Counted from the first letter of the whole stretch, positions 7,801 to 63,640 are shown. The stretch: 63,640 nt of DNA, filler included, from Atractiella rhizophila (GCA_021432655.1; 6 parts of 6 records of this genome joined end to end with filler, not necessarily neighbours in it); one strand, 5' to 3'. The notes: generated by a model from the sequence alone, not told the origin. Translations and numbers: made by a program.

Positions 7801-7811
7801 GAAAGACGAAC

Positions 7812-29661: not shown

Positions 29662-29808
29662 ACAGGTTTAGGTCAAGTCCCTCTTTTGTACCACGGAACG
29701 ATTCATGATGATGTAAATGTGCCTTTTCTGCGTTTACTTTCCGGGTATATCTTCTTGTGACTGTGAACATGTATGCACCAGATAAATCAGATACATGGAC
29801 AGGTGAAA

Positions 29809-34100: not shown

Positions 34101-34190
34101 GAGGATACTTTGAAGACCTACGAGAGCCGTTCGTATGGGTGCAAACGGGGCTGAGCTGAATTATCACCCACAAGGTTTGATGCAAGGTCA
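31126..34190 (+). mobile_element. hAT (Ac-like) transposon: left end plus decayed transposase, 3'-truncated
   Basis: Left end TAGGGATGAC with CCGT/TACG-rich subterminal repeats. BED-like C...GNTKTLCNHLVENH; first catalytic D in LLLDNWTSENHYAF...W.L...LGF....AHSGENMA; second in FTTDGASN; CxxH in HILCMPHIIHLAV. Stops and frameshifts present. Confidence 0.9.
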
Positions 34191-37320: not shown

Positions 37321-37369
37321 CTACATGCAGCTGATTGTGTAAATAAACTTGAAGATTCTTAGCGTTTAA

Positions 37370-38400
37370 AACTCTAGGAAGTCATACATAAAGTTGTCCA
37401 TGCACAAAAACTAATGTGTCCACAATTAACCCTACAGTCTCCTCTGACTGGCCCTATGACTTGTTGATGATGAGGCATGGGAATTGAAACTGGTGTAAGG
37501 TGAAAGGAAATGAATTGGAGACCTTGCTATCCAATGTGATGCGTGGGATGAGGATGTTGAAGTTCAGCCCGCCACCACCTTTCACGGCTTACTAAGTACG
37601 ACGCGACGTCACATATTCGAGGGGATTCTATTCTTTTCGCTTCTTCTTGCTTACTGATTTCTTACACGTCAATGTACTTTCTAAAATCCGTTTGCCACAC
37701 TTTTCTCAGATATATCAACCGTGCTGAAGTCTGGGAGAAATAAGTAATACTGATATTCTTGTTTCCTCCCAACTTCAATCTCACATCAGTATTCACAGTC
37801 TTACAACAGAGGACTGAGGTGCCGGTAATGATGGTAGCCTCAATGACATGGGAGAGCAGCTGGGTGATGATCAACTGTGTACCATTATAGAGCCCAGCTG
37901 AAGGATTGAGGTTTTGTATTAAGATGATAGGGGCTCCAACTTTGAGATGAAGACGATGAAGGGGGAGATGGATCATATTGAGAGTATTAAGGTATTCAAG
38001 TGCGAAGCCTTGTTGAATGTCCTCACTGTCATCGATCAATCGGTCAGGGCTAAAGTAGATTTGCTCCTGTCGGGAGACAATTGTCGAATAAGTTGATTGT
38101 TTATCATATCAACCTCACCATTCCGGGCTATAAGGACCATGTGCTCTTGAACGTATTGCCTCAACCCGACTGGGTTGACATCTTGCATTGTGGTGCTCAG
38201 TCCAGGATAGATGTCAGTCAGGAGACTGTCCAGACCATGGGATCACCAGACTATTATTTGGTCCTTCATAGTCAATGGACCATGGCCACAGTCTTCCAGG
38301 TTATCAGTTGCACCATTACCAACTGATAACAACCACTCAGCAAAAGCCAGAGACAATAGCAAAGCCTCAGTTAGTCATTTCGGCCTGACGACTTAGCAGG
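37370..38400 (-). pseudogene. Helitron PIF1-like helicase relic
   Basis: EYLNTL....LPLHRLHLKVGAPIILIQNLNPSAGLYNGTQLII, then ILIPRI, INKS*GQS, VG and VF.HGQLYV. Interrupted by an ~250-bp insertion (~37563-37818). Confidence 0.9.
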
Positions 38401-38559
38401 CACATGTTCACTGTGAGAGGGAGGACTTGAACTGCTGGCCAGAAGGGACTGTTGATGACACACATCAACGTTCTGTGCATGTGAAGCTTTAGGGATGCTG
38501 AGAGGCATTGTCGCATGTCGCCTAATTATTTATCAGACATGAACTCTTTGACTTGATGC

Positions 38560-41330: not shown

Positions 41331-41973
41331 TCGACAATCTAGAACTAAGGAATACAACCATTCAACCCGTACTGATGCCCTCTAGACTCCATTTCTTTGC
41401 TAAGACGAACTGGCTGCACCTGATTGTATGAATAATTCGGAACTCAAAGTTCATCAGCTTTACAGCCATGCTGTCTGGTTTCTTCGAAGGAGAGCTTAAG
41501 GTGTGATGGGGGTAGATGTTGGTGGTAATGACAATGGAGGTGGCTGAATGGCAGTGGGACATGCATGCATGGTGTTGTATTGATGATGGCTGACATGGAC
41601 AGTAGTAGAATACCTGATGGTAGAAAGACCCTTCTCCTTCTACGACATATGGTCGGCAATGTGGTGAATAGGCGAAGTAGAACTCACCTAGAAAGATATC
41701 TCAGGTACCATCTCAGTCCCTCTGTGTCTTGAGCGGGTCAGCAGAGGTATTGGAGGACGTGGATAGTGATGAGGGGGGGTTGAGGAGGTCGTTTGGCAAG
41801 GAGGATGTCATGGTGTGGAGAAGCCAAAGTTTCAGGTCTGCCTGTTCAGCCATGGGTATCATGGATTGCTTCCATCTGCATCATACCTATCAAGTTTGAA
41901 TCTACAAGAATGTATGCAAATAGACTGACAATACTTTTCACACTGGACAATTGCAGGACAAGTGTAACTCTGA

Positions 41974-42068
41974 TCTTGCCGAAGGTGAGGCCCCACGCAG
42001 TGGCCGCTGGAGGGGTCCAAGGGGGCATGGCGGGGGTTGCCCGAGGGACGAGGGCACCGACACACCTG
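41974..42068 (+). mobile_element. Mini-Helitron (95 bp)
   Basis: A|TCTTGCCGAAGG...TGCCCGAGGGACGAGGGCA hairpin...ACACCTG|T; homologous to 25602-25745. Confidence 0.65.
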
Positions 42069-44664
42069 TGTTCCCCAGAATTGTCTAATGGCAAGATGGT
42101 TAACATACTCCACATTTAGTTTCTTCACCTGTTTGGATTTGGCATGGTGCTTTTTAACTCTTTTCCCAACCTCATTTTCAACTTTCGCCTTTTTGCAGCT
42201 CTCATCCCGAAAACCCAAAACGCTAAAGCTCATGTGTTCAAGCATTCAACCAAAACTACTCCTGCCTCCGATGTGATCTAGCTAAGGTGTGACGCCGCTG
42301 GCTGATCTCGCGGGCGCGTTTACAAGGAACTCGAAATGGCAGTATGCTTTACATTATTCTACTGTTAAGGCTTTGGATGAGGGAAGGAATGTATCTGTTG
42401 TTGGTGAGCTCATGTCCTCTCGCTAAGTTGTATGGCTATTGTGCACCATGTCTGCAACCAAAGGATGTGCCCTTTCGCATCTTTGAGAGACGATTTTGCA
42501 CCCAGCAGGAATGATATCCTGGGTATGTGCCCATAGCAGCAGACATTTCACTTGTTCGGCCATATGTCAGAGTCGCAGAACAGGTTATCTGCTGTTTTAA
42601 TCAACAGAGGTAACTTACTATGAGAACGGCACAGCAAATCTCAGTAGTTTCTGCAACCTGCGTTGCCCTGGCTCCGCTGTCAGCGGAATGGTTATGTCAG
42701 TTATCTCACCTTGCAGTATACTAGTTATTTGAGGGTTTATTCGAAAGGCAGACTCAGCTTTCCCTGCAGTGCTCGAGGTTGCTGAGAAATACTGACGGTC
42801 AGATGAAGTTTACCTGCTATCATAGATCCATCCAGTCGCCCATATGTGGTCCCAGTCCACATAGCTTGTTCAGTGCCATCATGCTCCCTTTCTTTCCAAA
42901 AGACACAAAGTCCAGGTTCATTTATCAAATACTTGTTCCAGCCGGGCCGTGAGCTAGAAGGATGGTCATATTATAGCACGTCACAGTCTCATTTGCCTGG
43001 ATGTTTGACAATGTGAACTACCGGCGCATCCGCCAACCAATCCAACTCGACACTGCAGAATAACCAAAGACTGCCCAGGATCCCCAATGCTTTAGGCGCA
43101 TACGCCACGTATTTGTGATTAATCTACTTCACCAGACAACCATGAGAATTGAGGGAAGCTTCAAACACCTCCCCACTCTTCTCCATCCAGGCTTCGCCTC
43201 GGGGAAATCAGGAAGGATTAGTGAGAGTCTAAGCAAGAGTTGCCTCTGCAGGCGGCTGAATCATGGGATTATTTTCAGCGGGTTTCTCGCTAGCCCCAAT
43301 ACCGTGCAAGGAGGAAATGGGAAATGTTGCAGCTGCTGGATCAGAAGAGAACTTCGAGTGCAGCAGCATATCTGCCTGAAGAGATTGCTCTGCTATCCCA
43401 AAGGATCACCAACGTGAGAATCCTTTGCCGGTCCCTAGGTCAGGATGGACTCGTCACGATGTCTTTAGCAAAACAACTTGTTGACGGCTTGGATAGCTCC
43501 CGAACTTGCGACTGAAGACGGACCAGAGCAAGGATTTATTCAATGCCGGCTGACCTGTGCTGTATTAGTCGGATGACTTCTCGTTTTTTTGGTTCTTTCC
43601 ATGACCAGGCACGATATTTTTCAGCCTACAACTCTGTTGATCTCAAAGGATCCTCAATTGCCCTTGGCTAGACAATTTAACTGGAGACCAAAGAAATGAT
43701 TGTTGGAATCCTGAGGTTCGGAATTTGGATGGAATACTTTGGGCAGTGAAAGTGAGGGAAGTGGAAGAGAAAGGGTCAAAAGGAGACATCTCATTACCTG
43801 TTAAGATGACTGTTTTAAAATTTAGTGGTTCGTAAGATGAATGTCAATATTTGATTAAGTATTGTAGAAACAAAGACGCTCGAACGAAGAGAGGATTTTG
43901 ATGATCAGGAAGGCTGTTTGCGGCCTAGAAGGTGAGAATCGACATTGGAGTTCTTTCAAGTTACTTCAGAGCTTTTATGCTTCATACCGAACCAACAAAA
44001 AGGAGAGAAAGATTCGGTAATCTATAGGAGGTTGCATCCTTGCATGGTTTGAACTCGCCGTCATTTCCACAAGGTTTGGGGGGCAATGGCTTCATTTATA
44101 CCTTTCAGTCTCGTCGTATTTGATGCATCGATGAGCCAATTTTAGCTGTAAGTACGATAAAAGACATACGACTTTTACCAGCCCCATCGTAACGTGGAGG
44201 GAAGGCATTTTCTGGTATATCACACCGTCACTTGAACTGCTAGAGCACCGTCAGTGTATCTTCTCAATAGCGCCAGAGGGTTGCCCACGATCCCAATTCC
44301 CTAAGGGGTTACGACAGTTATCCACAAATAGCCTACTTCGACAATCACCTGTGCGTTCCACATCGTCAGCGGGACAGCCTATCTTTTCACTGCGGTTGCA
44401 ATTGCAGAAGGGGGAACGAAGGATGAATCAAATATGTTGGTGGAGGACGAGGCAGTGGATTCTACTCCTTCAAGTCTGTATCAGTATTCCGCCGTACCTG
44501 ATGACCATAGCGATAACTTATCTCTACTGGCTGCCTAAGTCTCTAGTCTCTGATCAATGTATGTCAACATACCAAAGGAGGTGAAGGGGAAAGTCGTGGC
44601 ACAGGAAGCTAAAAGCTTCATTTTGTTGATTTCAAAAAGAAACAAGCGGAACCATGATGCTGAG

Positions 44665-44860
44665 ACCCTGTCAAAAGCGTTTGGTCACTTTTGGCCGACT
44701 TTGGTCGTTTTCGGTCACTAACCAAAAGGTGGCTAATCGTGACCAATGTGGCCAAAAAAATGCACACTTTGGTGAATCTTCTGGTCACTTTCAGAAAGCA
44801 GAAACCTACGAATCCCGTCGTTTGGTCACTTTTAGTCACTCCTTAGTCGCTTTCTAGCTT
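44665..44860 (+). repeat. Probable DNA-transposon terminus with subterminal TTTGGTCACT repeats
   Basis: Repeated (T)TGGTCACT / GTGACCAA motifs after CCCTGTCAAAA; no partner end seen. Confidence 0.4.
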
Positions 44861-45782
44861 TCCTCAAACGTACATTACTCAGCCAATATTAGTCAAAATT
44901 AGTTGCAATTAGCCAAGTCTTGTATTTACATGATTAATCCAAATCAATGCATAGATTATAAAAAGAGAGATCCGTAAAATGTAGGCACGAATATATGTAG
45001 AAAGTGAGACCGTGAGTGGTGCCTGCTTTGGAATCCGCATCAGCGAGAGTGGAAGTACTGATAAGTCCTTACTGTCAATTCTAAGCAAGAGCTGGCGGGT
45101 AAGGGNNNNNNNNNNNNNNNNNNNNNNNNNNNNNNNNNNNNNNNNNNNNTTAATTAATTAANNNNNNNNNNNNNNNNNNNNNNNNNNNNNNNNNNNNNNN
45201 NNNNNTAGCCTATATGCAAGTATCGCTCAAGCGTCCGAGAAACTAAACAATTCCACGGTTCTATGTAGCCATTCAACGACAGAATCACGCCTGTAAATCG
45301 CGTGGATGCAGTAACGCTGGCTGGAAAGCAGGGAACCAATCTGTAGGTTCCAAGCAAGTTCGTCGACACCTGTTTCTCGACGTTTGTAGTCTCATTCCCG
45401 CAGTGATGAGCTATCGGAACGACAATGAAGAGGGCATCGAAAGCGGAAACCTGCATATGTAGTCATGTGCTAAAGGAAGTCGCTAGCGTCGCAAACCGAA
45501 CGAAGGCGAGCACGGGTGAGAGCACTGAGAAGTCAAGCTGGCGTAGGAGATGCCTACAGGTTTCATTTCACAACCTTTCGTCCCTGACGCTACCTTCAGC
45601 GCCTTAGCCTTCGCTCTCGTTGCGTGACTGTCCAACCAACGATCCATTTGTGCGGAGTGAAGAAAGGAAAAGGAGGCCAGCGAAGCTGTGAGAGGTACGG
45701 CAGATGTGGACGCCGGTGGAGGCGATAGACACAGAAATTCCTTCGTATCCCTCTTTGATCCACTCCGGTCAAATAAGTAACC

Positions 45783-46977
45783 TCAAATCGCGCATTTCTG
45801 GATCCCAACTCTGCCCGTCCACGTGGGGATCCCGAGCACGAGCACACATGCGACCTGACCTATCGCCCAACTCGAAACACCGTACCTCCACTTGTTTCGA
45901 CCTTTGAGAGTCTGAACCTCCAAAACGAAAGTGCTGACCGTGCTGAGCGTACCGCAGAACCCGTCGCTCAGGCCTTGTAATATCTGGCATGCGCTGAGGG
46001 AGGAGAGGGAGTGAGGGGAGTGGAGGTGCTGGAGGCTGTAGAAGGAGGAGAGGAGGAGGGTGCCGAGGATGTTCGCCGTGAAGGTCCCAACTGGGAAAGA
46101 GGAATGGAGAGGGTTCAGGTGACGTGAGAGTTGGAAACGGAGGTAAGTGCCTAGAGGGCCGAAGATGAGGGAGAAGGAGAGCTTGCCTCTCCACGGTTTG
46201 TGGAAGATGGCCAAGAAGACCGAACCGAGCCAGACAAGGAGGAGAGAGGGATAAAGGCATTGCACCCATCGAATCGTCTTCCTTGAGCTGGATTGAGAGG
46301 AAACGGGAAGTGGAGATGGTAGTGGAGGGAGGAGGGAAGAGAGGTGTTGGCCTAACATTAGAGCAGCCATCGACATTCCCATGGTCACTGCCGTCTGATT
46401 CAATCCATCCAGAAAGTCGTTTCCGCCTCCGTGTCTTCCTTGGGACTGAGATGGGTTCGAGAAAGCGAGGAAGACGTCGAGCATCCAGGAAGAGAAGGTA
46501 GTCAACGAGCCACAGAAACCAGTCGCCAGCGAAGGGTGTAGCTTTTCATCCCTTCAACAATGTTTACGATCAATCAATCATTCTGTCCCAGTCTTCTCGA
46601 GATCAGGCAAGGACGCACCATCGCATGAGCTCAGCTTTCCTAGCGCTGAGTACGCCCATCACAAAACAGCCGACGACTTGAGCCCACAACAGAGGGAACA
46701 CGCTGGCTCCATCGAACGTGAATATGGCGACGAGTCCCAGCCGTGCGAGTACGCCCCAAATAGAAAAAAAGCTTAACAAAGAGAATAGCGAAAGTTCTTC
46801 GAGAGCTAGAGCGATGCGAGAGGGCGAGGACACCTCGAGCGAAGGACCGGGAGGTTCAGTGTCGATGATTTTGGAAGAGCGGCGCGATGGCGTATTGCCT
46901 TCCCGCGACGCGTTACTTTCCTCCTTCTTGCGTAAGGAGCCTTTCTCCAACTGTGCCTCGATGGCTGGCGAGTCCAT
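45783..46977 (-). CDS. FEX1: FEX-type fluoride export channel (two fused Fluc/CrcB domains)
   Basis: GVLARLGL and GTYLRFQL (GxxxR); TGFCGSLTTFSSW and DGFCGTLSTVSTF; GTFTANILG. An intron at 46552-46618 joins the ORFs in frame. Confidence 0.93.
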
Positions 46978-47131
46978 TCCCTAGGTAAGGCTCAATCGAC
47001 TATCTTGCTTGTTATTGTCAAAGTTATCATTAGATGCATTACTATTTACGGGTAGGCAATTTCCAATGTCCAGAACAATCAGGAAGAAATCCGACCGCTC
47101 CAAACATTGCCATTGCCAAAGGACAGTCAAA

Positions 47132-49142
47132 ATGTACAACGACTTCAACGGGTTTCCACCGTTCCAAGGAGCTCCTCCCTTCCAGCACCATCAGCACCAG
47201 ATTCCTCCGCCTCAGCCCCAGCAGCAGCAACAACAGTGGTTTCCGCCTCAGCAGCAGCATCCTTTTCCACACCAGCACCCGCATCAGGTCCTCCAGCATC
47301 AACAGCATCAGCAGCAACAACAGTTCCTGCATAATGTCAACGTGCATCCTCATCCCCAATTCCTCCAACATCAGCCCCCGCACCCGCTCTCCCATCCTCA
47401 GCACCCGCAACATCAGCATTGGCCGTCACCTCCTCCTCCTCCTCCAAGAACTCCACCTCCTCCAGCAGCTCCAATCGCTTTTCCTCTCCTCACACAGGCA
47501 CAACAGGTCCCTACCAGTGTCATCAAAGTTTACAAGCCGTATTTCTCTCCCTTGGAAGTTGCGAACTTATTAGGAAAGTTAAATGTGCGTTCCCTTTCAT
47601 CCTTCCTTGTCCCTATATCCTATCTCCATTTACTGTTGAGCCTCAAGGAATCATGAATCAATGCTGATGTCCTCTTTGGTGTTGAACGAACAGTTAGCAG
47701 CCCCAGGCGTCACTCCCATTCGTCTCAATGATCAATTCGAGAAGCTACGTTCAAGCGCCTTGGGATACATCGACCGCGTCGGGGCCAGGCTTGGATTGTA
47801 CGTCGTCCCACTTCACGCCTGTCCACTCTGTTGACCGTATCTTGTGGGGAACAGTCCACGAAGGACAATAGGCACTGCTCAATACCTTTACACCAGATTC
47901 CACCTTTTCTTTTCTCCAAAAGACTTCAAGTACGAGCATGTGGCCATGGCAGCTCTCCTGGTATCTTGTAAGCAAGAGGACACGCTCAAGAAGACAAGGG
48001 ACATTCAGGTCCGGTCATTCCTCCCTCTTTCTCTTTCGCTGTTTTCCAGACTTGCTGACGATCGGTTGCAGGTGGCGGGGCATCAGTTGAAGAGTATAGT
48101 CGAAGGAGGAAAGGGGACAGGAGAACCGGATCCCGTCGTGAGTTTCCTCCTTCTCTCTTTGTGCTGTCCACGCTGAGAGGAGAATGAAGGCATTGGAAAA
48201 CGACCGAGCGCGTTTGATAGGAATTGAGAGGCTCATCTTGGAGACAATAGCTTTCAATTTCTACGCCGAATTCACGTCTTCAGGACTCTTTGGAGGGAGC
48301 GGGGCGATCGGGAAGGACGTTTTTGGTTGGGTGTTGAAGTTTGGTCGACTGGTCGGAGGTGGGTCTCCTTTTCCTTCTTTCCGTGGTGGTTGGAGTAAAG
48401 TAAAGAGGATGGATGGTGGATGTAGCGAGCAAGGATTACACGAGATTCGCGTTCTTGTTGGCCATTGACGTTTATCGAACCTTCGTACCCTTGTCTTATC
48501 CTCCGCATGCGATCGCAATCACTTGTCTTTGGCTTGCACGCTTTTTGGGAAGGTGGGAGGCTCAAGATGAAGGTATTGAGTGGCCGACGACTGAGGAATG
48601 GGAGAAACGGTTCGAAGTGGAGGTGGTGGATGTGGAAGGTTCGCTTCCCTTCACTTCGTTGTCAGTTGTATGGAACTGACTTGGAGATGCGAATAGAGAT
48701 AGCACATCAATTCCTTGACCTTTTCCTCATGCTCCTCTCCTCGTCCAAATCCACAGTCTCCCGAATATCTCCCTCCGAATCCTCCTCCAATCCCGCCTCT
48801 CTCTCTCCAATAGATCCCACCAACCCGCTCTCCCTCAACTACTCTCACGTCCTCTACTTCCTCTCCTCATCCGGCCTTCTTCCCGAAACAGACTTCACGC
48901 AAATCAAAATCCGCCTGCGAAAGATGGCCGCTGAGCGTATCCCACAGAAACAGAAGCCGATGAGGGATGGAGATAGGTGGTGGACAGAAGAGAATGAGAG
49001 GTTGAGGGAGAGGAAGAAGAAGAAGGGTGCTGGAGATAGTGGTGGAGATTGGTTGGGCAGAGACGATGTTACGATCAGGTTTAAGTTTAGGGAGTTGCCG
49101 AGAGAGGTGGAGGAGGGTGAGGAGGAGGAAACGTCTTTTTGA
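47132..49142 (+). CDS. Transcriptional cyclin (CTK2/cyclin K-like) with Q/H/P-rich N-terminus; multi-exon
   Basis: YKPYFSP.EV, IDRVGARLG|PRRTIGTAQYLYTRFHLFF, AALLVSCKQEDTLKK, LIGIERLILETIAFNF and AIDVYRTFVPLSYPPHAIAITCL form two cyclin boxes. Confidence 0.88.
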
Positions 49143-49268
49143 GCATTCTGTACATCAGGGATTGTTCTTTCTGTCGAAAAAAGCGTAATGCTAGCATCTG
49201 GCTCTGAGTAGGCGTGAAATGATGTTGTATAAATTATACTTTTGATGGGAGATTACTAGGATGTTACT

Positions 49269-50414
49269 CTACGAAGAAGCCAACCTGCCCTGAATCCAAC
49301 CTAACGCTTCAAGATCCATGACCACCCACTTCCTCAACATGATGCCATAAACGCTCAACTCGTTCCACTTGACGACATCGACCTGTTCCAAATTCCGGAG
49401 ACTCCTCTCGACAGCCAACAAACTGGGCAACCTCGACGGTTTTCCCTTTTTCCTCCCCTGCTTCTCATACGGTTGCACCTCCTTCGGGGCCTTATCAAAC
49501 TCATACCCTTCCCCCACGACGACCAAAGCGTTCTGACCGACCAAGTTCCTCCTCAACCTAGCCAATCCAGTCTTGGTCTTCATCTCCGTCCCCTCCTCCC
49601 CCTTTCCCTTCGGATCGCCCCACCAGTCCACGACGATCACCCGTCCGTTCCTCCACTTGTCCGACAACGCGATGCGGATGGCGGAGTCGACCACTTTTCG
49701 CGGCAATTCACCACCCCATTCTTTCGGTCCCTGGCCGCTCTGTCCAGGTCCGAACGCTACTCCTCCCTTGTGTAACATGGGAGACCCTCGTGAGCCGAGA
49801 CGCGAGCGACCCGTCTTCTTCTGTGGTCGGATTTTACGACCTGAATAGTTGACCTACACACATCCCAAACATCTCAACTCCCTCCCTTCCCTTCGCAATA
49901 AAAAATAACAAGGAAAGAAAGCAAGACGCACCATAGCCCTATTCTTGGTCGCAGCGGTTCCTTGTCTGATCCTCGCCCTCTCCCAAGTCATGACTCTGTG
50001 CAACAGGTCTTTCCTTCGGGGAACGTTGAAAACGGATGAAAAGAGAGGGACGTAGAACCGCTTCTTTTGGCGACCCGGAAGGACGCGTTCATGCGCCAGC
50101 GGGAAGCCAGCGGCGAGGGGACGGGTGTGGTCGTAGGTGCGCAAGGGGACATGAACAAAAGGCGGCGGTCCAGAAGGCAGCGGATGGGGAGTTGTCGAGG
50201 TTAGAGTGGATGACGTGGATGTGGGCGTTGCTGGTGGGATGATGGGTGGAATGGGAGGGAAAGAAGGAGATGAAGGAGCAGAAGTGGCTGCTGTTGCCAA
50301 CGAGCGCTGCTTGACGAGGTCACACCATGCATTTGGCAATAAAAAGTAAAGACGCACGTATAGGAAAGGTATGCGCCGACTTGGACACTTGCTAAGACCT
50401 AGAATTCGCTCCAT
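49269..50414 (-). CDS. YML6: Mitochondrial large ribosomal subunit protein uL4m
   Basis: VFNVPRRKDLLHRV..W....RQGTAATKNRAMV|NYSGRKIRPQKKTGRSRLGSRGSPMLHKGGVAFGP, LPRKV...AIRIALSDK, SLRNL; presequence-like N-terminus. Confidence 0.92.
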
Positions 50415-51376
50415 TCCCTCTCCCAACGTTCGTGTCAAAGCTGAAGAAATTAAAGCGAGTCTACGGGGAAAACTGTAGTGTATTTTGCAATGGTCTCAGG
50501 AAGGATCTGTGGTACAACTCCTTCGTGGAATTATCACCAAAGGACATTCAGGTCGAGCCAGCGATTGCTGTATTGGCAGTGGGAGCCAGCCCACAGGAGC
50601 TGTGGGAGGCTGCAGTTCCGGTGCGTGCGAACAAGCAGTCCCAGCTCGGCCATCAGCCTCCTTTATTGGCTCAGTATTGGCTCAGTTATTGGCTCTTATC
50701 TATCTCATCCAGTATCGTATCCAAAGCATGAGTGGTACATGTATAGTCTTCAGTGTTCCTGCACTTATCCAAACGCTGATTTCAGCTATAACAACATGTA
50801 CAGCTTCCGCTCGGTGCAATCCCCTCGGATCCCATGATCGAGATTTTATCCAAACAAAACATCAATTTTGTGAAAGTGTTCTTTGAAAGAAAGAGCTTGA
50901 GGAAGAATTGGGAACAGGGGAGAAGAAACCGAAGGAAGCCGCATCAGACCTTCTTCCACGCCCGGAAATTGGGATTTAAGGTGTTTCATTTATCGAAATT
51001 TGCGCGTGCATTCGGACTCCAGATGCACGTCAGAATCCCAATCCCACCATTGAGATTGAGATTCGTCGGTGTGGACAATTTGGCGACCGCAGACGTCGCC
51101 TAGTCGGTTTAAGCATAAAAGGATATAAGGCCATCGTTGCCTGTTTACCGGTCTCCCTTTGCTTTCAAATTCACGTCCCAGTGTTTACGCTAGGCCTTTG
51201 CTCCGCCTCTCGCAACACTTGGGGCGTACGATTCAGGAACTTTTGGGCCATTTATCGTCGCTCCTTACTTTCATTGCTTTTTCCACAACTCGATCTGGAC
51301 TCCTCGAACGCTTTTAAAACTCGATCGATCCTCTTCCTGATCCTTCTCCCCAGTCCTCACACCCCTATCACTCTTG

Positions 51377-53456
51377 ATGCCTGTTTTCGCCTCGATTTCC
51401 TCCTCTCGCGCCGCTTCGCAGAACGAACGTGAACGACGGCAGGATGTTGAAACCGCATGGGAGGATTACGAAAGCAGCGGTACTTCACCAAGTTGGACAA
51501 CTGAAAGCGACCGAATAGACGATAGCGACCCTGCCTTTCGTTATTCCGGTGGATGGGAGGAGGTTTGGAGTACGAGCGCTAATTACTCACAGGGCGGTTA
51601 TCATGAGACGAGTAGGAGTGGAGCGAGCGTTCGTCTCGCGTTCAACGGTCCGTAGTCCTTATTGACACTCTGCCATTTGTCCACCTAAGGTCAGTACTTG
51701 ATCCTGAATGTATGTGTTAACAGGTACCGCAATCGCACTATTTGGATCGTATGGACCGGATCATGGAGACTTCCAAGTGACGCTCGACGAGCAGTCCACG
51801 ACTTTGTCGGGATATTCAACTGTCGAGATGACGGGACAAGCCATCTTTCATACGCAGGGATTAAGTCAGGACGTCGCCCACAATTTGCAGCTAATAAATT
51901 TGGATGATGGGAAGCGGTTAGACCTAGACTCATGCGTTGTGGAGAGGTATGTGGGCGTGGGGTGTGTCCCCCTTCCTCCTGCATCATAGCTGATCAGCGC
52001 GATCTCATTGTGTTAAACCTCGTAGTCCGTCGATGAAACCTTCTTATACCACTTCCAATCCTTCAATACCAACTTCTCCTCCTCCCCCCAGCGGTTCTGG
52101 AGGATCATCGAGTGGAGGAGGTGGATCAAGTATCCAGCCAACAGGGACGACCGACAGCATCAGTCTTTCTTTAACCCCATCAAACATTGATACTGGTGTC
52201 CTTCCCCTCCCGACATCAGTAACAAACGATGGATCCGACTCCTCAGACCGTGCCGGAGTAATTGCAGGCTCAACGATAGGCAGTGTGGCTGGATTATCCC
52301 TCCTCCTTCTCCTCTGGTATCTCCATCGTCGCAAAGGATATCCGGCTTTCTACCTCCTTGGCAAGAAGGTTGGGAGGGCCCCCGTAGTCGTAGAGAAGGA
52401 CAACGAATCCCCGTCGGAGCGGGAGAGAACTGATAGCTCGCATACAGATGGAGCCAGAAGCGTCCAAGAAGTGACAGGGGTTGGTACGACCAGATTTCTA
52501 ACCTTTGAGGAAGCCCGCGCTGGAGGAGGGGGATCATTCGTCCCGATTCGCTCACCATCTCGATCGTCATCACCACTTCAAGGATCTACCCCTCTACATG
52601 GCCGATCATCCTCGGTTTCCTCTGCTCTCAGCGACCTCCGTTACGTCTCCGTTGCTGCAGGAGGGGGAGGTGGAAGTGGCGGCCCGTCGAGAAGGGAATC
52701 GTATTCTGAAGACCCTTATCTGGAGAGACGTTCCCCTGTCCTTTCGGTGAGAAATCCGGATGTGGAACCACACGAGGATGGTGCGATGGATGCTGCAGTT
52801 TCTGCAGGAGTGATTGGAAGATCGGTATTGAGAAAGCGATCATTGCCTGCTATCACCCAGGCGTACATCTATGATCCACCTTCAACTTCCGAACCCTCCA
52901 GTCCACACAGAACCACAACAACTACTCCAATACTCTACCCATCTAGAGTGTCCAAGACTCCTCCGCCGGATTTATCCTCCTTGTCCGCTCAGTTACCATC
53001 CTCTTATACCTCACCTCCAAGTAGAACCTCCTACGAGTCCAATTCTTACCCCCGCCGGCCAACGCTGGCCGCAATTCGAGAGCTCTCATCCTATCGCTCG
53101 GCGACCTCGAATACATCGGATGTCCTCAGCACTCCGGCTTCAGACGAGAACTGGGGAAGTGGATCTTCTCAGGAGAAGCTTCTGCCTACGGTTGGGAGCA
53201 CAAGCATGGAAGCCGGAAGTAGCTTAGGACACCTCGATGGTGGTGCCAGTAGGAGCCGGAACACGCACGAGAGCCAAGAGCACCTTCATGTTCCTTTCGC
53301 AGTTTCACCGGACGAAATTCAATATGTGGGATTCGGGGAGTTTCCATTTTGTGCGTGTCTACTTTTCTTTCCAACTGCCCACATCGACTAACTTGCATTT
53401 GTTACGTCCAGCCTCTCCGGGATCCAATTCTCAAAGTGGCCATTCGTCGCACTGAA
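51377..53456 (+). CDS. Single-pass membrane protein with an extracellular beta-sandwich domain, Ser/Thr stalk and disordered cytosolic tail
   Basis: IDDSDPAFRYSGGW...HET..SGASVRLAFNG|TAIALFGSYGPDHGDFQVTLD (a motif common in basidiomycete membrane proteins) and TM GVIAGSTIGSVAGLSLLLLLWYL-HRRK. Start uncertain. Confidence 0.8.
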
Positions 53457-55899
53457 TTCAATTTCACTTCTTCATGCCATTCCGATACCCAGATGTTCCG
53501 ACGTGATCATAATTTGACTATCCCATAAATGCGGATAGTGCACTTCAGACTTCAAAACATGCATTTCGTAACAATTTTTATTGCCCTGCCCTTTACTGTT
53601 CAACGTACCCATGAATCAAGAAGTGCCAGAAATGGAAATAGCTCATTCTCAATATGTAGGGGCCCCGATAACTTCGAGACGTCCTTTACAAGAGTTAAGG
53701 TATCTCNNNNNNNNNNNNNNNNNNNNNNNNNNNNNNNNNNNNNNNNNNNNTTAATTAATTAANNNNNNNNNNNNNNNNNNNNNNNNNNNNNNNNNNNNNN
53801 NNNNNNGTGGATGTCCCCGCAGATGTGGAGGATGAGGAAGGAGGGGAAGAGGCGGACGAGAGCGAGGATGAGAGCGCTAGGAGAAGCAAGATCGTTCAGG
53901 CCGCTGCAACTGAAGTTTATCATCGTCACCGAAAGAGCTCGCAGGGTAGCAGTTGAAGGAGCAAGGAGCCAGAATGCCGATTTGGTTTGGCTTTTGCCTT
54001 TTGGTTAATATTGAGATATGAGGAATGGCCACCGGCCACGGTTTGTTTCGTGCTTCAGTATCTGTGTTTCAGTGCCCAATGTTGTTGATCATGATATGGT
54101 TGAGGAGGAAAAGTTTGGAGAATTCGCTGTGTAAATTTTGTCCTTCTGCTGCCTGAATACGGCACTTTCTCAATGTAGATATTTGTCAAGCTATTGTATT
54201 GTCTTTGGACCATCGACTTTCCCAACAGAATGACACGCCTTCAGACACAGAGGAAGAATATTTCATTTACGAAGACCCATTACCCTCCTTATGTACAGGA
54301 TTTTCCACCTAAAATGTCCATCGTGCTCAATACCCGCTAGGTATGACGACTATGCCAATCCGACAACGTTAAACAGAACACAGAAAGATCCAAAGCCTAA
54401 GATACACTGATCGAGTAGAGAAAGAGAAGGGGAAGGGAAGGGGAAGGGAAAGGTGAACAAAAAGAAGAAAAAGGACTGTAGTGTTAAAACGTCGGTATTG
54501 GTATTGATCGTGAACAGTTAAAATTGATGTTCGAGGGCTTTACACCTCATTAGTTCCGTTGCATCCTCAGGGAAATGGNNNNNNNNNNNNNNNNNNNNNN
54601 NNNNNNNNNNNNNNNNNNNNNNNNNNNNNNNNNNNNNNNNNNNNNNNNNNNNNNNNNNNNNNNNNNNNNNNNNNNNNNNNNNNNNNNNNNNNNNNNNNNN
54701 NNNNNNNNNNNNNNNNNNNNNNNNNNNNNNNNNNNNNNNNNNNNNNNNNNNNNNNNNNNNNNNNNNNNNNNNNNNNNNNNNNNNNNNNNNNNNNNNNNNN
54801 NNNNNNNNNNNNNNNNNNNNNNNNNNNNNNNNNNNNNNNNNNNNNNNNNNNNNNNNNNNNNNNNNNNNNNNNNNNNNNNNNNNNNNNNNNNNNNNNNNNN
54901 NNNNNNNNNNNNNNNNNNNNNNNNNNNNNNNNNNNNNNNNNNNNNNNNNNNNNNNNNNNNNNNNNNNNNNNNNNNNNNNNNNNNNNNNNNNNNNNNNNNN
55001 NNNNNNNNNNNNNNNNNNNNNNNNNNNNNNNNNNNNNNNNNNNNNNNNNNNNNNNNNNNNNNNNNNNNNNNNNNNNNNNNNNNNNNNNNNNNNNNNNNNN
55101 NNNNNNNNNNNNNNNNNNNNNNNNNNNNNNNNNNNNNNNNNNNNNNNNNNNNNNNNNNNNNNNNNNNNNNNNNNNNNNNNNNNNNNNNNNNNNNNNNNNN
55201 NNNNNNNNNNNNNNNNNNNNNNNNNNNNNNNNNNNNNNNNNNNNNNNNNNNNNNNNNNNNNNNNNNNNNNNNNNNNNNNNNNNNNNNNNNNNNNNNNNNN
55301 NNNNNNNNNNNNNGGAAAACAGGTTAGTTGGGGTCGTTCGTTTGAAACACAGTGGTAATATAAATAAGAGGAAGTTTAAGCGCCAACATGCTCATCGCAA
55401 TGCATGCCGAAAGATGGATATACTAACACAAACCTGATCCTAAGTCCGTAGCATGATGCCAACTGCCCGTTGTAATTAGCCGCAGAAGACATCGACGTCC
55501 AAATATGCATTTATGAGACAGACAGATGTGGCGAGGTCTCGTCACAAGAGAATTTTCCGCTCAGTTTACCAGAAAGTGTCTCCTTCCCCATCAATACGCT
55601 CTGGGAGTTCGTTGCATAAGCCACATATGCACTGATGCAGCGTTCTAACATTGGATGTTACTTGAATAGGGGCATTTAAAGTGACATGATAAGTTTGATG
55701 TCCAACCCTAAGTCAAGGTACAGAAGCTGTGCACTTCAGAGCTATGCCTAGTTCCGCGGTTCTCCCCCTAAGCATTGTTCTCTCTAACAACAGTGCAATT
55801 ATTCATCATTGTATTTGATGGAATGGCAATGCATAGCGAAGGACGAGAAGACTCGTCGTATACCGATATAACCTGGGAGGGAAGAGAAAGAATAGCCTG

Positions 55900-56654
55900 A
55901 TACGAACGAAGGCTAGATAGGGTTACAGGACAAGGCACAGAATGGGCAGCTATTCAAATCACCCACATCCCCTGGTCCGCAAAGTCCGTAGAACTAGAGA
56001 TCATGGGACTTATGCTCTTCTGAGCTCACGCTTTGGAGAGACAAAGGGAGATGAGCACTCGTGCATCACATCTCGAGGAACGTCTGGCTCAGTAGATAGC
56101 TCCAAGACAACCCGCAGGGGAATTGTTCCACTCCGATGCAACACCAACGCAACACAGCAACCATGTCAAACCCAAAAGAAACAACGTACCCTCATACCGA
56201 TTCGCCCACTGACGCTTCGGATTCTTCTTCGGGTCCTTCACATGGACCAGCCCATACCTAATCGCCCACTTTGGCGTCCTCGCCCTGTTCTTATTGTTCC
56301 TGATGTTCTGGAGGTAGAAGTTGTGGAAGTGGCCGGGGAAGTAGCCGCAGAGTGTGAGGATGATGTTGAGGAAGAAATCCTTGCCGACTCCGAATCGGAC
56401 GAGGACGGCGAGCGGTGGCGCGAACCAGCCGCAGACTATGACTATGGAGCTGCACCATAGACGCATTCGATTCAACCCATCTTTAAGGAAGAGAAGAGGA
56501 GAAGGATGAACGGACTAGAAGAGGATAGAGGCCTTCTTGTGTTTGACGGTATGAGTGAGATCCTTCTTCGAGGGGGCCTTTCATAATACACGGTCAGCTT
56601 ACTAGCACTGCAATAATAAAAGAATAAGAGAATGCATGCCTTAATTTTGACCAT
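55900..56654 (-). CDS. Pmp3/YqaE (UPF0057) family proteolipid with C-terminal extension; 3' end uncertain
   Basis: APPLAVLVRFGVGKDFFLNIILTLCGYFPGHFHNFYLQNIRNN. The reconstructed start MVKIK|APSKKDLTHTVKHKKASILFY|SIVIV uses a GC-AG intron (56578-56639) and a GT-AG intron. Confidence 0.8.
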
Positions 56655-57445
56655 GTTCGCAACCGCGAGTGCGCCTCGCCTCCAGAGCTACAGTAAGTTA
56701 TGAGCGGACGGTCCCTCGGATGCTGTCCGCTGGCCGGGTTGCGAGCTGCGAATGTGCGAGCGGGAAGCTGTGTCTTAGCGTGACAAAGAAGTAAAGACTG
56801 CCGTGTGATAGAGGCTGAGTGAGAAGTGCGAGTGCAGGTCAACGCAATCGATTTCAGGTCTTTGTTGGTTCCGTCGGGTTACACTTAGTGTCGGAATAGT
56901 GATGGAATAACTAGAGAGGACTAACAAAGCCGTTGCAGTCTCATAATAAATCTGTTTCCTCCAGCAGAACTGAAGCAGACCCGCATCGTTCGTAAGATCG
57001 TTATTGCATTCTCTCTGTGAGCTTAACAGCGTGCGCAATTTTCAGAGGGTATTATCTTGTGAGCCTTTCTTTCTGTGCTTGGATAGGTCAACTGTTCGAA
57101 CCATTTTCACGGCGAAAGGTCTATAAGGCTTGAGATTTTCACACTTTAATTTAGTGTTGGGAAGTGTCATTTGTGATGCATGTTCCAATTCTTTCGAATA
57201 GTCTAGCAAAAGATATAAAGCCGTCAATGATTTCAAACTAGACATCAGCTGCACGTCTGTCTGCAATTCATCCAAACAAATCCAACATAGTTTCTGAGTT
57301 CTCTTTCAGCTGTGAGAGCTGTTGAATTCAGCAATTTACAGACCTGTCAAGTATGACAAGTGAATCAGGAATGCGATGAACACGATAAATACGTAGCCTG
57401 CCTACGAGAGAACCTAACACGGTGACTTAGCTCCCAACTCTAGAC

Positions 57446-59028
57446 ATGCAGTCACATCAGCACGAAGGAGTGCCAATTTTCCATTTCTATCAATACGACC
57501 GAGACGACGACGTCGACTTACACACTGCAGAGCGACATCCGCTTTCAGAGTCTCCTTACGAACAAGTCGTTCTGAGCTGGACCCAGTCCTTTGCTATATC
57601 CACTTCCGTAGAAAAGATATATCTACACCTCTTGGCTTCGGATTGGGATGGAGAGTGCGAACGACAACATGTGGTTGATGTGTCAACCCATGCATCTTCC
57701 CTCCATATCTACTACGCAGGATATAAGGAGCAGAAACGAACGACAGACGTGGTGATACTTGGCCCACTCAGAGTCTTCATCGCTGACTCTCAGCTTCAAC
57801 ATCAAGTGGTTCGTACTTTCCAAGCCAGTGTCACGCGTACATCTGGAGCCCTATCCATTGATCCTGACGATTTTGCTTTCATCCCCTCCGGATGGAGGAC
57901 TTCTGCTATCTTTCAACTTTCCACGAAAACCTCCGAACCCCTTTTTGACAGATTACCACTTGAAACTTTGGACAAGATCCTCGAATCGGTATTAGAGCAC
58001 GAAGAGGGATACGAACTTTGTACCACGACTTGCTCTGCGTGGAAGGAACGTGCGCTGATATTGATGGTCGAACCTTCCAACGGCCAGCTCAAGTTGAGGC
58101 ATCTAACCTCTTTTCCTCAAATCATGAAATCATGGATCAGCTCAACTTCTTGTCTGAAGATGTAGAAGCTGGAGTGGATTTCCGACGTCTCGTCTATGCA
58201 ACTCTGGATTTCCAACCAGCAGTCACAGAGATCGAACTTGATTGTCCTCCTTCTTTGAGAGAACAAGAGGCCCTAGGTTTGTTGGAAGGATTGGGCACCA
58301 TTAGTCGCCCTGGACTTTCCAATTGGCCTCAAACGACCCTCGAGAGCTTTTTACGGAACACTAAATCATGGGACACTTTCGAGACACTTCATCTGACGAG
58401 CACTGATCGAGCGCTGATATTACGACAGGAAATCAATGCCGTGCCGACTTTCAGACCTGGACCATCCGAACTCACTCTCCTCGTCTTGAACAACCTTCAC
58501 ATCACACCCATCATCGCCTCCCTATTGGACGCTCCAAATCTCAAAGACCTCACGCTTGAAAATTGTTTGCCTTTTGACCTGGCGGCACATTCGCGACATC
58601 CAAATATCACCAATTTCGTCTTCCGCTTCTCCGATCCATCCAACAAAATAGGTCGCTTTGAATTTCGGCACGCTCTCATCCTCTCCCGCCCACTGAACCT
58701 CTCCGTCTTTCCCAATCTCACAGATTTAGTCATCGAAGGAGGACACGAAAACAGCGGCGTCCTCCCCACCGATACATTTCAAACACCGGTGCTCCTCCGC
58801 TTGGTGAATTTGAAGGAACTCGAGCTCCGCTTCTGTTCGTTGGAATTCGATGGCTTCATACCTCTCATTGAACGGCTTTTGCCTAGAGAAGTGATGGTTT
58901 GGGTTCACCTCTTTTTTGGCGAATGGACCAACTTGGACGTACAGACGGCCGCCGTAAGAGCTGGCGAACTTGGTGGTAATAATTTGGATGATTATGAGAG
59001 ACCATACTTTTACTTGGGTGGTAAATAG
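57446..59028 (+). pseudogene. F-box-like / LRR-like protein with an apparent frameshift
   Basis: FDRLPLETLDKILESV...CSAWKERA (F-box-like) in ORF 57446 and LxxLxL repeats (LKDLTLENC, LTDLVI, LKELELRFC) in overlapping ORF 58018. No clear intron reconciles the frames. Confidence 0.55.
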
Positions 59029-60368
59029 AAACCTTGCAATAAATTTGACAAAATTGTGTCTTTCAGATCGTCTCTTTCGTTCACAAAAGGGTATCCTTTG
59101 GACGAGCATCCAAACCAACATTGAAATTTCATGACCAGTATTTCTACCTTGAATATTGAATAGCACAAGACATGAAATACATTTGACAACGCGGGAGCGG
59201 CTACGAATGGGATGAAAGTGTCGAGACTGGAAGATCATGAAGAAAATCATGGCCGGTTTTGAAAATGACGTGTGCCACGAAATTCGTACACGTCAAAAAC
59301 CTCTTGGAAGAATGCAAGGAGCGTACGATAGTTAAGATTGCGACTCTGAAGAATGTCGGGGCTTGTTCCACGTACTAAACACACCATAGAAAGCAAAGTC
59401 GAAAACATGATCAGCAGATCGCCAGATATACCCAGAATCGCCTTGTAAGTCTTTTGACAATTAAACAAGACCGAAAGCATTGAATGTTGTGCCAACTGTC
59501 GTCGTCGTCTGTTCTCATTCCGCTTCCCAAACAACACTGAAACAACGGGGCAACGGGGCAGCCTGCATGTTCTGTTCTAACAAAAGTTTCATCTTCAATC
59601 TTGCTACAAAGTGTCGAGGCAAAAAATATTCGACTATTGGACAAATCATAGAAAGAAACAACTTTGTATTTCATGCAGAATATGTGGTCGCAAAGTTTTG
59701 GCAATCTCAAGTAAACAGGCCAGTCAGAGCCTCACTGATGTTGAAGACACATCTGATTGTGGTGAACTTCAGGACAAGCTTTGAATACACAACAGGAGTT
59801 CAGCACTAGTCAGCGCTTGTTTCAAGGCAGAAAAGTCATCAATGAAGTCTAAGATGCGGCAAGCTCCTTGAGCGCTTGAGCAGAAACCGTTAGAGTAGCC
59901 TTCTTGCTGCAGCTGGAGCTACTCAGGGGTGACAAGAGATCGTAAACTTACCGTTTTCAAATCATCCCCCTTTCACTCGAACTTGCGCCGTTCGGTCATG
60001 GACATGCCAGAGGAAAAGCAGGAGGTATCTGTCCTGACGTTACAACTTAGACCGGAACCCAATGCTTCTCGATTTGAAGAAGCTCGACGCTCCGATTCTG
60101 TGCGGTTGAATTCGACGGTAACTTTGATTGCGTGTGCGGTCGTTAGCAACATCCTACAAAAAGGAGCACACGCAATCAAAGATTCAATATTCGTGCGCTT
60201 CTCCGCCGGCGCTTCATAAGCTTCACATCTGCTCCGAAATTCAATGTTTTCTGAATGTTTTCAACGCTCAGCTCAAGCGGGCCGCATCAAGTGCCTGGTT
60301 GTGAAAAAGAGCAAAAATAAATCGAGTACAGCTGTAGTCTCTAGTTCTCCTCTGATCCTCCAGTCAAA

Positions 60369-62397
60369 ATGTCATCGGTTCTCTCATTTCTGCTTCTTCC
60401 TCCGTCGCCTGACACTTCCTTGCCTGAGTCGGGGGACTTACGGCCCATCCTCCACCGCTTCAGCTCCCTCTTGCCCTCTCCCCTCCGCAAACTCCTACGG
60501 CATCCCTTCCTCGCATCCCTCCGCTCCCGCCTGCTCTACCTCCTCGCAACCATGCTACGCTCCCAAGGCCTCCTCGCCTCAAACATACTGTACGACCTCG
60601 CCATCTCCCTCCTCCAGCTCATCGTCCACCTCTTCTTCCGCGAAGTCCGATCGAGAGGCTCACACAATATCCCAACAGATGGACCGACCATTTTCTGCGC
60701 CGGACCGCATCATAATCAGTTCTTGGACCCCCTTATCCTCGCGAGTGTGGTGAGGGAGAGGTCAGGGAGGAGAGTTAGCTTCTTGATTGCGGAAAAGAGC
60801 TGGAAGAGGGCATTCGTGGGAACCATGTCCATGTTGTTGAAGAGTAGTACGTACATTCTTCTTTATATGTCCATGGGAATTGGGGATGTGAGATTGTGAG
60901 CTTGAGCTTCTTTTGGTTGATTCAATGTTCCCGCAACAAAGTGCACAACACATATAGCTTCGAGGTTGTGCAACTGATATAGGCTTTGGCCGACTTTACA
61001 GTTTATTCCATTCGTTACGGCGAAACTTTCATGTCCTCTTTTGCCGTCTTTGCCGCGCTTGGATGGCTGTGGTTGCATAACTGGAACGGGATTGGCCATA
61101 CACCAAGGGCAAACCAATGCACATTGCATGTCAACTGACAGCGTTGGGAAACGAACACTGTGATGTTTCGCGGTTAATCTGTGTGACAACACTTTGCATT
61201 GATTAGTTTGTCATCTATGGAGCTGGAAGGAGGTTAACAGCTTATCTGGCGAGGTTAAGGTTATGCTGTTATGACGTTCTGTAGTGTTGTCCTTAAATCT
61301 TAATTTCTAGTTCCTCTGTGATATTGCGCACCTTGTTGGGGTTGGGTGGGATATTGGACTGGGATCCTGGTGGAAGGAGAAGAGCACACGATCCTATCTC
61401 ATCTTACAATCCTGCACCATGGCCTCTCTCTCCTCCAGCGTACTCGCGACCAACGTGATGTACGACCTCTCTCTCGGTGCATTTGGTCTCATCGTCCACG
61501 TCTTCTTTCGAGAAGTGAGGACGAGGGGCGCGCACAACATCCCCAAAGAAGGTCCCATCATCTTTGCGGCCGGCCCGCACGCCAATCAGTTCCTCGACTT
61601 GATCCTCGCTTTGGTGGTCAGAGAGGCTTCGGGCAGGAGAGTCAGCTTTTTGGTTGCTGAGCATAGCATGAAGAGGCAGTTTATAGGACTTGGAGCCAGC
61701 ATCTTTAAGAGCAGTATGTGTCTTGATTGTCCGTTTGGATTGAGAGATGGGATGGACATTGTGCAGTGTAGAGTGGTTGGGGAGCTCAACAACGGGATTC
61801 CCCTGTCCTGCGTCCATCTATGTTATATTTTATTTTTCTTTCTGCATTTTCGCGACCAATCCTGTTCCATTTTCGTAGCTGATACTTGTGGTGAACAATG
61901 CTACCTTGCAATTGCACGGTCGTACTTGTCCCACAATTTTGGATGGAGATACCGGAGAGGTTCTCGAGAATGACTTTCATACATTCGAAGAGATATCGTT
62001 GAGCTTCTCCCCTGGAGGAAGAAAACATGGGATTAAATCGAGTTGTTCTTTCGCGAGTTGCAGCGACGTTCATTCAATTGTCGACGCTGTCCACTTTCTC
62101 TTTCTAGCTTAGGAACCCAATCCTAGCGAGCACCGATGACGAAACACCATTCACTATGGATTATCATCGCTGACCCCAAGTCCGTCAGCTCTGGTTTCGC
62201 ACGAAACCGTTCTGTACGGTTTGGAGCAAGAAGATCTTCGAACAGAAATCTGATTGGTGCTCGCTTACTCCCTTTGATTTCTATTCTCAAGGACACCACT
62301 AACATATTTCTTATCGTACAGTTCCTGTTGCGAGAGCAGCCGACAATGCAGTGAAGGGTGCTGGAACGTTGTACATGAAATCGTCGGATGAAGGAAC
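60369..62397 (+). CDS. SCT1: Glycerol-3-phosphate/DHAP sn-1 acyltransferase (SCT1/GPT2 family) with two candidate first exons (60369-60846 and 61419-61713) and a shared exon from 62322; continues into a gap
   Basis: FFREVR.RG.HNIP..GP.IF.AGPH.NQFLD and RRVSFL.AE.S.KR occur in both exons. Donors GTACGT (60847) and GTATGT (61714) are both phase 1. The acceptor CTAAC...TACAG|TT CCT GTT GCG AGA gives IPVARAAD. Confidence 0.9.
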
Positions 62398-62497: not shown

Positions 62498-63640
62498 ACT
62501 GATAGGAGTGGACATACATTGTCCTCAAATTCTTTGGAATCTGTACCAATCCATGTCATCAACGAGCTCACCATCGAACACATTAGGCAAAGATAAGCGC
62601 AACAAAAAGAACATACAGCAGCCAAAGCACTGGACCAATTTCCCGGATCCTTCTTCAAGCTTTCCAGTACCTTCTTCTCAGCGACGGCTCTGGAGGGCAT
62701 GCTCTCCCAAGCTTCCTTAATCTTCCCTTCAGAGTAAAGAACCCGCGCAAAGGCGATATCTTGGGGTTCCTCATGAGTTCTTGGGTCAAGAACCAGGGCA
62801 CAGGCTTCACGCCATTTTGACTGGAGTAACAGATGCCCCATTCGATGCGTGGGAACTGTCGATGTGCCGAATCGTTGTAGCCCTGTTAAAATTGGGCTAC
62901 ATGTTATCCGCCAATGTAGTTGAAGGGCGGGTGTCATACCAAAATAGTTTATGAATCCTGTGGAGGCAAGATGCTCGATGTTGCGGGACACCTGTTCTTG
63001 TGAGTCGAACTTCACGTCCCTGTCATAGCGATGATCAGGTAAGTGTTCAGTAAAGAGCATACAAAATTGGACATACCTAAGGGTGATACAAAATCTATTG
63101 CCCTGGCCGCTAGCCAGATCAAGTTCCTTGTTACTCCATTCGATGTCGCCGATGACCAACTCCTTGCCTCCACTGTCCATTTTCTCCCCACTCTCTTTCA
63201 TCCGTTTCCAAACAGCTTGCAGACCGCCAGACCATCTGGCGCGCTTGACATCCATGCAAACCCGTTGAACCGTCACACCACGCTTATCTTTCGTTCCAGC
63301 CACGGACAGAGCCTGGTGTGGAACTCTGAGGATCCGAGAGATGAGCTGAAGCGAGTCATGTGTCTCTCGATTCGTCTTATGCAATGTAAAATGGATGTAA
63401 GGTAGCGTCGTCGCGGTTGCATAGCGAAGGTGCTTTTTGCCTGATCGCAAAGCAATCAATTCGCATGAGCCCAAGAGAGAGGAAAGATAGAATAAGCATG
63501 TATGGTCTCAAATTTAATGCCTTCTCTTGGATTCCTTATAATAGTGAAGACACAGGTAAGAGGACCATTGAATAATGTGGCGTCATTGGATTGCGAGCTG
63601 TCTGTGGAACGGAAGACATCCCGCCTTTAATCGACGCAAG
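62498..63640 (-). CDS. PUS7: TruD-family pseudouridine synthase (internal exons; both ends outside the visible sequence)
   Basis: YIHFTLHKTNRET, catalytic AGTKDKRGVTVQ, GNRFCITLR, GFINYFG|LQRFG; short introns are read through in the ORF track. Confidence 0.92.

Follow-up and report, generated by a model that had tools for sequence, protein, structure and literature searches.

In Atractiella rhizophila, two alternative first exons, which we call A and B, very probably supply one acyltransferase gene body, with the choice between them made by start site, and the enzyme is probably produced from this gene in two versions. The two exons are homologous, both are joined in transcript contigs to the same downstream exon, purifying selection has acted on both, and both keep the residues of catalytic motif I. 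An earlier note on this DNA had proposed two isoenzymes produced through alternative first exons, and that interpretation is supported, since both junctions were seen and neither exon is evolving neutrally.

In the mechanism that we favour, the first coding exon would have been duplicated in tandem long ago. Both homologous copies would serve as first exons, with separate transcription starts and with phase-1 GT donors that are spliced to one acceptor, at 62322. Because each exon would have its own start and the acceptor is common to both, it would be the choice of start site, not the choice of splice site, that sets which N-terminal module is placed on the common body, and motifs II-IV would come with this body, as would the membrane helices and the C-terminal tail. 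Isoform A, which is missing from the public annotation, would carry an ancestral-looking module together with a conserved, positively charged N-terminal segment, and isoform B, which is annotated and has 693 aa, would be the version that is without this segment and has diverged faster.

The locus and its protein family

The window, that is, the whole stretch of DNA analysed (63,640 bases), consists of six pieces linked by N44-TTAATTAATTAA-N44, and the GC content of the pieces ranges from 0.43 to 0.52. Reading any feature across a linker is invalid. The acyltransferase locus lies on the fifth piece, which has an internal N gap at 54579-55313 and stops 76 nt into the shared second exon, so the body of the gene lies outside the window. 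The shared C-terminal body that had been proposed for the two exons is therefore not in the window, which has only the first 76 nt of the common exon. Coordinates are collected in Table 1.

Table 1. Features of the acyltransferase locus and pieces of the window
Feature	Position	Strand	Basis or remark
Alternative first coding exon A	60369..60846	+	Open frame, ATG, contig joint to 62322
Isoform A intron	60847..62321	+	1475 nt, GT..AG, joint in 3 runs
Presumed 5' untranslated leader of isoform B	61349..61418	+	Contig starts in X3 and X4; tentative
Alternative first coding exon B	61419..61713	+	Open frame, ATG, match to P0156, contig loose ends
Isoform B intron	61714..62321	+	608 nt; donor GTATGT, CTAAC 62299-62303, acceptor CAG 62319-62321
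Shared second exon, start only	62322..62397	+	Encodes (I)PVARAADNAVKGAGTLYMKSSDEG, motif II included; P0156 match
Pieces	1-15058, 15159-30157, 30258-45105, 45206-53706, 53807-62397, 62498-63640		Linkers

Upstream of the acyltransferase gene, a minus-strand frame at 56092-56514 encodes a Pmp3 proteolipid domain (PF01679, E 2e-15) and, at 141 aa, is unusually long. The ORFs at 57431-59025 (+) had no Pfam match. The next piece carries a fragment of a TruD pseudouridine synthase (PF01142, E 1e-33) at 62501-63507 (-).

A public protein of A. rhizophila, P0156, described as a 'hypothetical protein' of 693 aa, is 99% identical across the whole of exon B by word-index search. After exon B it reads ...FKS-IPVARAADNAVKGAGTLYMKSSDEG, which is the exact translation of 62322-62397 (...FKS-IPVARAAD), and its residues 99-123 are identical to the protein encoded by the start of the shared exon. 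By this agreement the public model P0156 is isoform B. The corresponding search for exon A found no long or full-length protein or model containing it, which in a word-index search is weak evidence of absence, and it gave GPATs of Rhodotorula, at 46-50% identity. An exhaustive search with exon A returned a single protein, P0006, a 176-aa ORF identical to exon A and its read-through into the intron. Short ORF proteins resembling B (101-322 aa) gave 63 candidates, none of them significant, and a metagenome scan with the alignment of A and B gave seven loci, each at 32-37% identity, too distant to inform on the exon layout in relatives.

When scored against the acyltransferase profile PF01553, the exons taken singly fell under the curated cut-off of 23 bits (20.1 bits for A, 13.8 bits for B), and full-length P0156 was above it with 42.1 bits. 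Family membership can also be read from the motifs. The earlier note had written the catalytic motif as HxxxxD; in Table 1 of Smart et al. (PMC4207751), motif I of the fGPAT-A family is H-x-N-Q-F-phi-D, that is, HX5D and not HX4D. The excerpted text of the same paper places motif II, phi-pi-V-x-R-[pi/phi]-x-D, 35-46 residues past motif I, and gives for the family an invariant FPEGGSHD (motif III) and a long spacer between motifs II and III. Motif IV of the family has the form phi-phi-P-[V/C]-G. At this locus motif I is HHNQFLD at residues 114-120 of isoform A and HANQFLD at residues 54-60 of isoform B, and motif II is IPVARAAD, which is assembled across the splice junction 39 residues (A) or 38 residues (B) from motif I. 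Motifs III and IV are present in P0156, outside the window, as FPEGGSHD (219-226) and IVPVG (254-258). On these motifs we assign the locus as the 5' end of a fungal ER-type G3P/DHAP acyltransferase gene (fGPAT-A, Sct1/Gpt2 family).

Exon layout and transcript evidence

Exon A encodes 159 aa and one nt of a split codon, and its product comprises a conserved N-terminal segment (DLR..PSPLRKL), an N-terminal helix and motif I, up to just short of motif II. Exon B encodes 98 aa and one nt; it too contains an N-terminal helix and motif I and stops just short of motif II, and it has neither the N-terminal extension nor the Pro that follows the motif I Asp. As had been described for both exons, each frame is open and begins with an ATG. 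Within 60300-60560 the only ATGs are those at 60369 and 60552, which are both in frame, and the sole ATG within 61330-61425 is that of exon B.

The proteins of A and B are identical at 61 of 95 positions (64%) with a single 1-aa gap (BLASTP, E 3e-44), in agreement with the manual estimate of about two-thirds in the earlier note. At the DNA level the likeness is 73% and is limited to 60573-60846 against 61443-61713; the exon flanks, which had been thought unlike, gave matches at chance level only by blastn. The donors, AAGAGTA^GTACGT in A and AAGAGCA^GTATGT in B, are both in phase 1 and fall at the same aligned codon, so that as tandem homologous exons A and B share both phase and donor position, and the two intron lengths are as originally described. 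The acceptor at 62322 has TCGTACAG before the junction and TTCCTGTT after it, and is preceded by the CTAAC at 62299 and a pyrimidine-rich run. The longer intron encloses all of exon B and the presumed B promoter. Used as a tblastn query on the window, P0156 matched only A, B and the exon at 62322 (59000-62397 at E <=100, whole window at E <=1); neither a third copy nor any gene-body remnant in the stretch from A to B was detected.

Eighteen public runs were matched in the run search, and contigs of four of them (X3, X4, X7 and X11) were examined. For X3 and X4 the kind of run is not recorded; we infer that they are RNA runs from their spliced contigs and, in X3, from the contrast between contig depths of ~100-700 on exons and 3-12 on introns, depths which are unsuited to ranking isoform A against isoform B. 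The joint 60846^62322, with GT..AG borders and 1475 nt skipped, was present as an aligned joint in three of the four runs: in X3 with a side of 21, in X4 in a 555-nt contig that reads 60395-60846 and then 62322-62397 (side 76), and in X7 in a 249-nt contig (side 76). Exon B was joined to the same acceptor in two of the four runs. Here contigs carry loose ends of 9-14 letters behind 61713 (TTCCTGTTGCGAGA in two contigs of X3, TTCCTGTTG in X4); these are unlike the genomic continuation and equal the start of the 62322 exon, and their 14-mer has a single occurrence in the window, at 62322, so the contigs read B joined to 62322. The evidence for this junction is weaker than that for A, as it consists of short loose ends and the gene model P0156 and includes no aligned joint. 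With these data both junctions predicted in the earlier note, 60846^62322 and 61713^62322, have been observed, and each exon is joined to a common downstream acceptor.

In X7 only isoform A was seen, although the absence of a B contig is not probative, and the same applies to a joint from A to B, of which there was none in the contigs of X3, X4, X7 and X11. From X11, a soil metatranscriptome, there was one unspliced 178-nt contig (62149-62326) that crosses the acceptor from the intron into the shared exon. Other unspliced contigs run from the end of A to the region upstream of B (60855-61378), from the end of B into the intron (61698-61896) and within the intron (61921-62112). These contigs, of low depth, order the parts as they are ordered in the window, which argues that the layout is not a misassembly.

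We infer separate promoters for A and B. Contigs of exon A start at 60378-60395, with the ATG at 60369 lying beyond them, and for exon B the first contig positions are 61349 in X3 and 61355 in X4, neither with a loose end or joint upstream; for both exons contig ends do not map starts. Contig depth in X3 climbs from 11.9 to more than 100 at 61349, where the B leader would begin. The break at this position has a 30-letter overlap with the neighbouring contig, as a fork in the assembly graph would give, and the start at 61349 is perhaps such a fork only, which makes the leader and start of B tentative. The promoter of B would be expected directly before this leader. Two further loose ends in X3, of 22 letters before 60378 and of 18 letters before 60574, are absent from the window and leave the start codon at 60369 without confirmation from RNA. 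They could come from a variant haplotype or from the 5' end of another strain, or isoform A could have one more variant at its 5' end.

The contig 60855-61378 of X3 (depth 11.9) also has a 17-letter loose end that equals 60783-60799. The joint from this loose end skips 60800-60854 (55 nt) and has CT..AC borders on the plus strand, which on the minus strand read GTACGT...CAG. A candidate explanation is an antisense transcript, itself spliced, at 60783-60880 (-), which would overlap the 3' end of exon A and its palindromic donor GTACGTAC and might take part in any switch between the exons. The possibility of a nested gene in the minus-strand ORF at 60863-61210 was rejected, since only 5 of the 12 X3 differences within it fall at third codon positions, which gives no coding signal.

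Conservation and origin of the duplicated exons

By Nei-Gojobori counting over 94 codons, dN between A and B is 0.30 and dS is 1.45. The resulting dN/dS of 0.21, at this level of dS, indicates an old duplication with purifying selection since, and so the neutral evolution of exon A that would have told against the two-exon reading is not borne out. Differences between strains point the same way in A: a few percent of sites in the runs depart from the window sequence, and among the 40 of 52 run-versus-window differences that are listed, all 11 in exon A are synonymous and at third positions. In the coding part of exon B, 5 of 8 listed differences are synonymous and the other three are in codons 2, 8 and 11. 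The shared exon has one listed difference, 62367 C>T in X4, a non-synonymous change from Thr to Met.

Counting as near-invariant a residue shared by 95% or more of 131 homologues, both exons retain all of them: F89, F90, R91, P102, P113, H114, N116, Q117, F118, D120, R134 and A141. The difference between A and B at the catalytic motif to which the earlier note had drawn attention falls on the variable x of HX5D, a position held by Ala in 66 and by His in 41 of the 131 homologues. The Pro after the catalytic Asp is more telling: it is found in 100 of 131 homologues, with a gap in 3, and it is absent from B, which also has His at a position where 101 of 131 homologues have Lys. With this Pro missing and His in place of the conserved Lys, the activity of isoform B could be impaired. 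The oddities of exon A are Cys110, Thr107, Trp145 and Met155. Both isoform proteins are presumed to be active enzymes.

A maximum-likelihood tree (42 rows, 95 columns) places A and B as sisters with support of 96/93. The branch leading to A measures 0.18 and the one leading to B 0.43, so that B has evolved 2.4 times faster. The nearest outsider, P0007, is 61.7% identical to A, which makes it almost as near to A as B is, and 54.3% identical to B; P0156 and P0007 are 56% identical overall. An older duplication, in which A groups with the P0007 clade to the exclusion of B, is not rejected (AU p 0.078), and a lineage-specific origin is therefore favoured but not proven. The ~60 N-terminal residues of A, with DLRxLL...PSxLRKL, recur upstream of the core in many relatives, and B has none of them. 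The idea that A and B are counterparts of SCT1 and GPT2 does not hold, because A and B are sisters and, in the excerpted text of Smart et al. (PMC4207751), the SCT1/GPT2 split occurs only within the Saccharomycetaceae; yeast sequences were not identified by name among the 42 rows of the tree.

The fast branch of B bears on an alternative in which exon A is the real first exon and B is a relic copy in a long intron, transcribed and spliced incidentally. We consider this improbable. It would account for the rate of B, its lost Pro and Lys, its missing N-terminal segment, the short loose ends at its junction and its absence from the X7 contigs, but the frame, ATG and donor of B are intact, its listed changes past codon 11 are all synonymous and dN/dS is 0.21. 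All near-invariant residues are retained in B, in X3 and X4 its contigs are about as deep as those of A and end in 62322 sequence, and its protein is modelled with confidence (pLDDT 83.8).

Still less credit is due to the view that there are two separate full-length paralogous genes and that the source of the A-type transcripts is a different locus, which has a second exon of its own, the skip of 1475 nt being only apparent. The isoform A contig of X4 differs from the window at 5 of 76 nt in the shared exon and at 8 of 452 nt in exon A, an excess that could reflect chance, strain divergence or a second locus, and X3 also has variant contigs at 90-95% likeness. Against a second locus, A-type contigs match the exon A of the window at 98-99.6%, the shared-exon part of the X7 contig has only 2 mismatches in 76, the window DNA has no sequence like the second exon between A and B, the unspliced contigs connect the end of A with the region upstream of B, and a near-identical second exon beside first exons of 64% identity would be odd for separate paralogues.

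Equally far-fetched is the reverse proposal that B is the sole real first exon and A the stump of a former tandem paralogue or a decaying pseudo-exon whose splicing to 62322 is noise: the public annotation with B only, the failure to find a long protein with exon A (weak evidence), the length of the 1475-nt intron and an ATG that RNA contigs do not reach would all fit it, yet the joint of A to 62322 occurs in three of four runs at contig depths comparable to B, the listed strain differences in A are all synonymous, A is nearer to relatives than B is (61.7% against 54.3% to P0007) on a shorter branch, it retains the N-terminal segment conserved in many relatives, and the tblastn search with P0156 gave no body remnant between A and B. 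Two alternative first exons on one body thus remain the preferred reading.

Structure of the swapped segment and comparison with known systems

An AlphaFold2 model of P0156, that is, of isoform B, was made with an alignment of 60 sequences (mean pLDDT 83.8, pTM 0.79). In the model the part encoded by exon B starts with a long N-terminal helix (4-29), from which two strands run up to motif I. A helix (58-71), a strand (75-80) and a pair of short helices (81-95) follow, and the part ends just ahead of motif II. Its best structural match is PlsC of Thermotoga maritima (5KYM; Z 19.5, 202 residues, rmsd 3.3 A, model residues 2-330) and the second is human GPAT1 (8E4Y; Z 17.3, 230 residues, rmsd 3.2 A). 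Sequence identity to these two is only 15%, and they differ from the P0156 model in being without alternative N-terminal modules, the beta-rich insert between motifs II and III and the C-terminal bundle of membrane helices.

Identity between A and B is distributed unevenly over these elements: the strands with motif I reach 77% and the helix and strand after them 85%, against 48% for the N-terminal helix and 44% for the final helices. According to Robertson 2017 (cited in the excerpted text of PMC6688108), the active site of PlsC is kept at the membrane by the helices that precede the alpha-beta domain. By analogy the isoforms would differ at the face towards the membrane and acyl chain rather than in catalysis. 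Since the differences between A and B lie in the N-terminal helix and in the helices just before motif II, the isoforms may differ in acyl-CoA selectivity, in association with membrane or lipid droplets, or in regulation. More specifically, and with more doubt than belief, one can picture an ER GPAT whose catalytic head is switched by promoter choice, giving isoenzymes that differ in acyl-CoA selectivity or in placement at the ER versus lipid droplets on a shared membrane body.

Yeast Sct1 is an ER enzyme with a preference for palmitoyl-CoA, and Gpt2 occurs on lipid droplets as well as in the ER (PMC7613133, Table 1). Sct1/Gat2 and Gpt2/Gat1 of S. cerevisiae belong to the same fGPAT-A family as the Atractiella protein, with the same set of motifs and the same long spacer between motifs II and III, and yeast too has two isoenzymes. 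In S. cerevisiae, however, these arose by duplication of a whole gene, whereas at the Atractiella locus the first coding exon alone is duplicated and the body is shared. If the picture of a switched head is true, a duplicated exon would fill here the role that two genes have in budding yeast. Reports of fungal isoenzymes that arose through tandem duplication of a first coding exon are rare.

Tandem homologous first exons joined to common downstream exons are found in the vertebrate UGT1A locus and in the clustered protocadherins. The likeness to Atractiella is that each first exon has a presumed promoter of its own and that promoter choice picks the N-terminal module. Those systems, however, are in animals and have many variable exons, each of which encodes a whole substrate- or ligand-binding domain; the fungal locus has two exons and, unlike them, an exon boundary inside the catalytic domain, with motif I on one side of it and motif II on the other. 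Mutually exclusive internal exons are similar in their origin by tandem duplication, in keeping length class, phase and splice-site position, and in the use of one copy per mRNA. They are internal and are chosen by the spliceosome, whereas both Atractiella exons are first exons with an ATG, and B is without an upstream acceptor; exon choice in Atractiella is presumably made at transcription initiation.

The acyl-chain and membrane specificity of ER-type GPATs is poorly understood, and progress on the determinants of substrate specificity is described as limited in the excerpted text of Smart et al. (PMC4207751). The locus offers a natural pair of chimeras, which have one and the same body and exchange ~95 residues at the N-terminus, with differences clustered in the first and last helical elements and a beta-core that is 77-85% identical. 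It also flags an isoform that is not annotated in a public genome, since isoform B alone was found as a model. No report of a GPAT with an alternative first exon was found in literature searches, and for cases of tandem exon duplication or alternative first exons in fungi nothing relevant was found by title and abstract. The literature on A. rhizophila, among the papers listed and judged by title, consists mostly of surveys of root and soil microbiomes and of work on fungal taxonomy.

Outside the window, the spacer between motifs II and III of P0156 (residues ~102-198) appears in the model as a small beta-rich domain. It matches beta-barrels of F1-ATPase subunits and phage tail proteins over 70-80 residues at Z ~6, a likeness that may reflect a common arrangement only.
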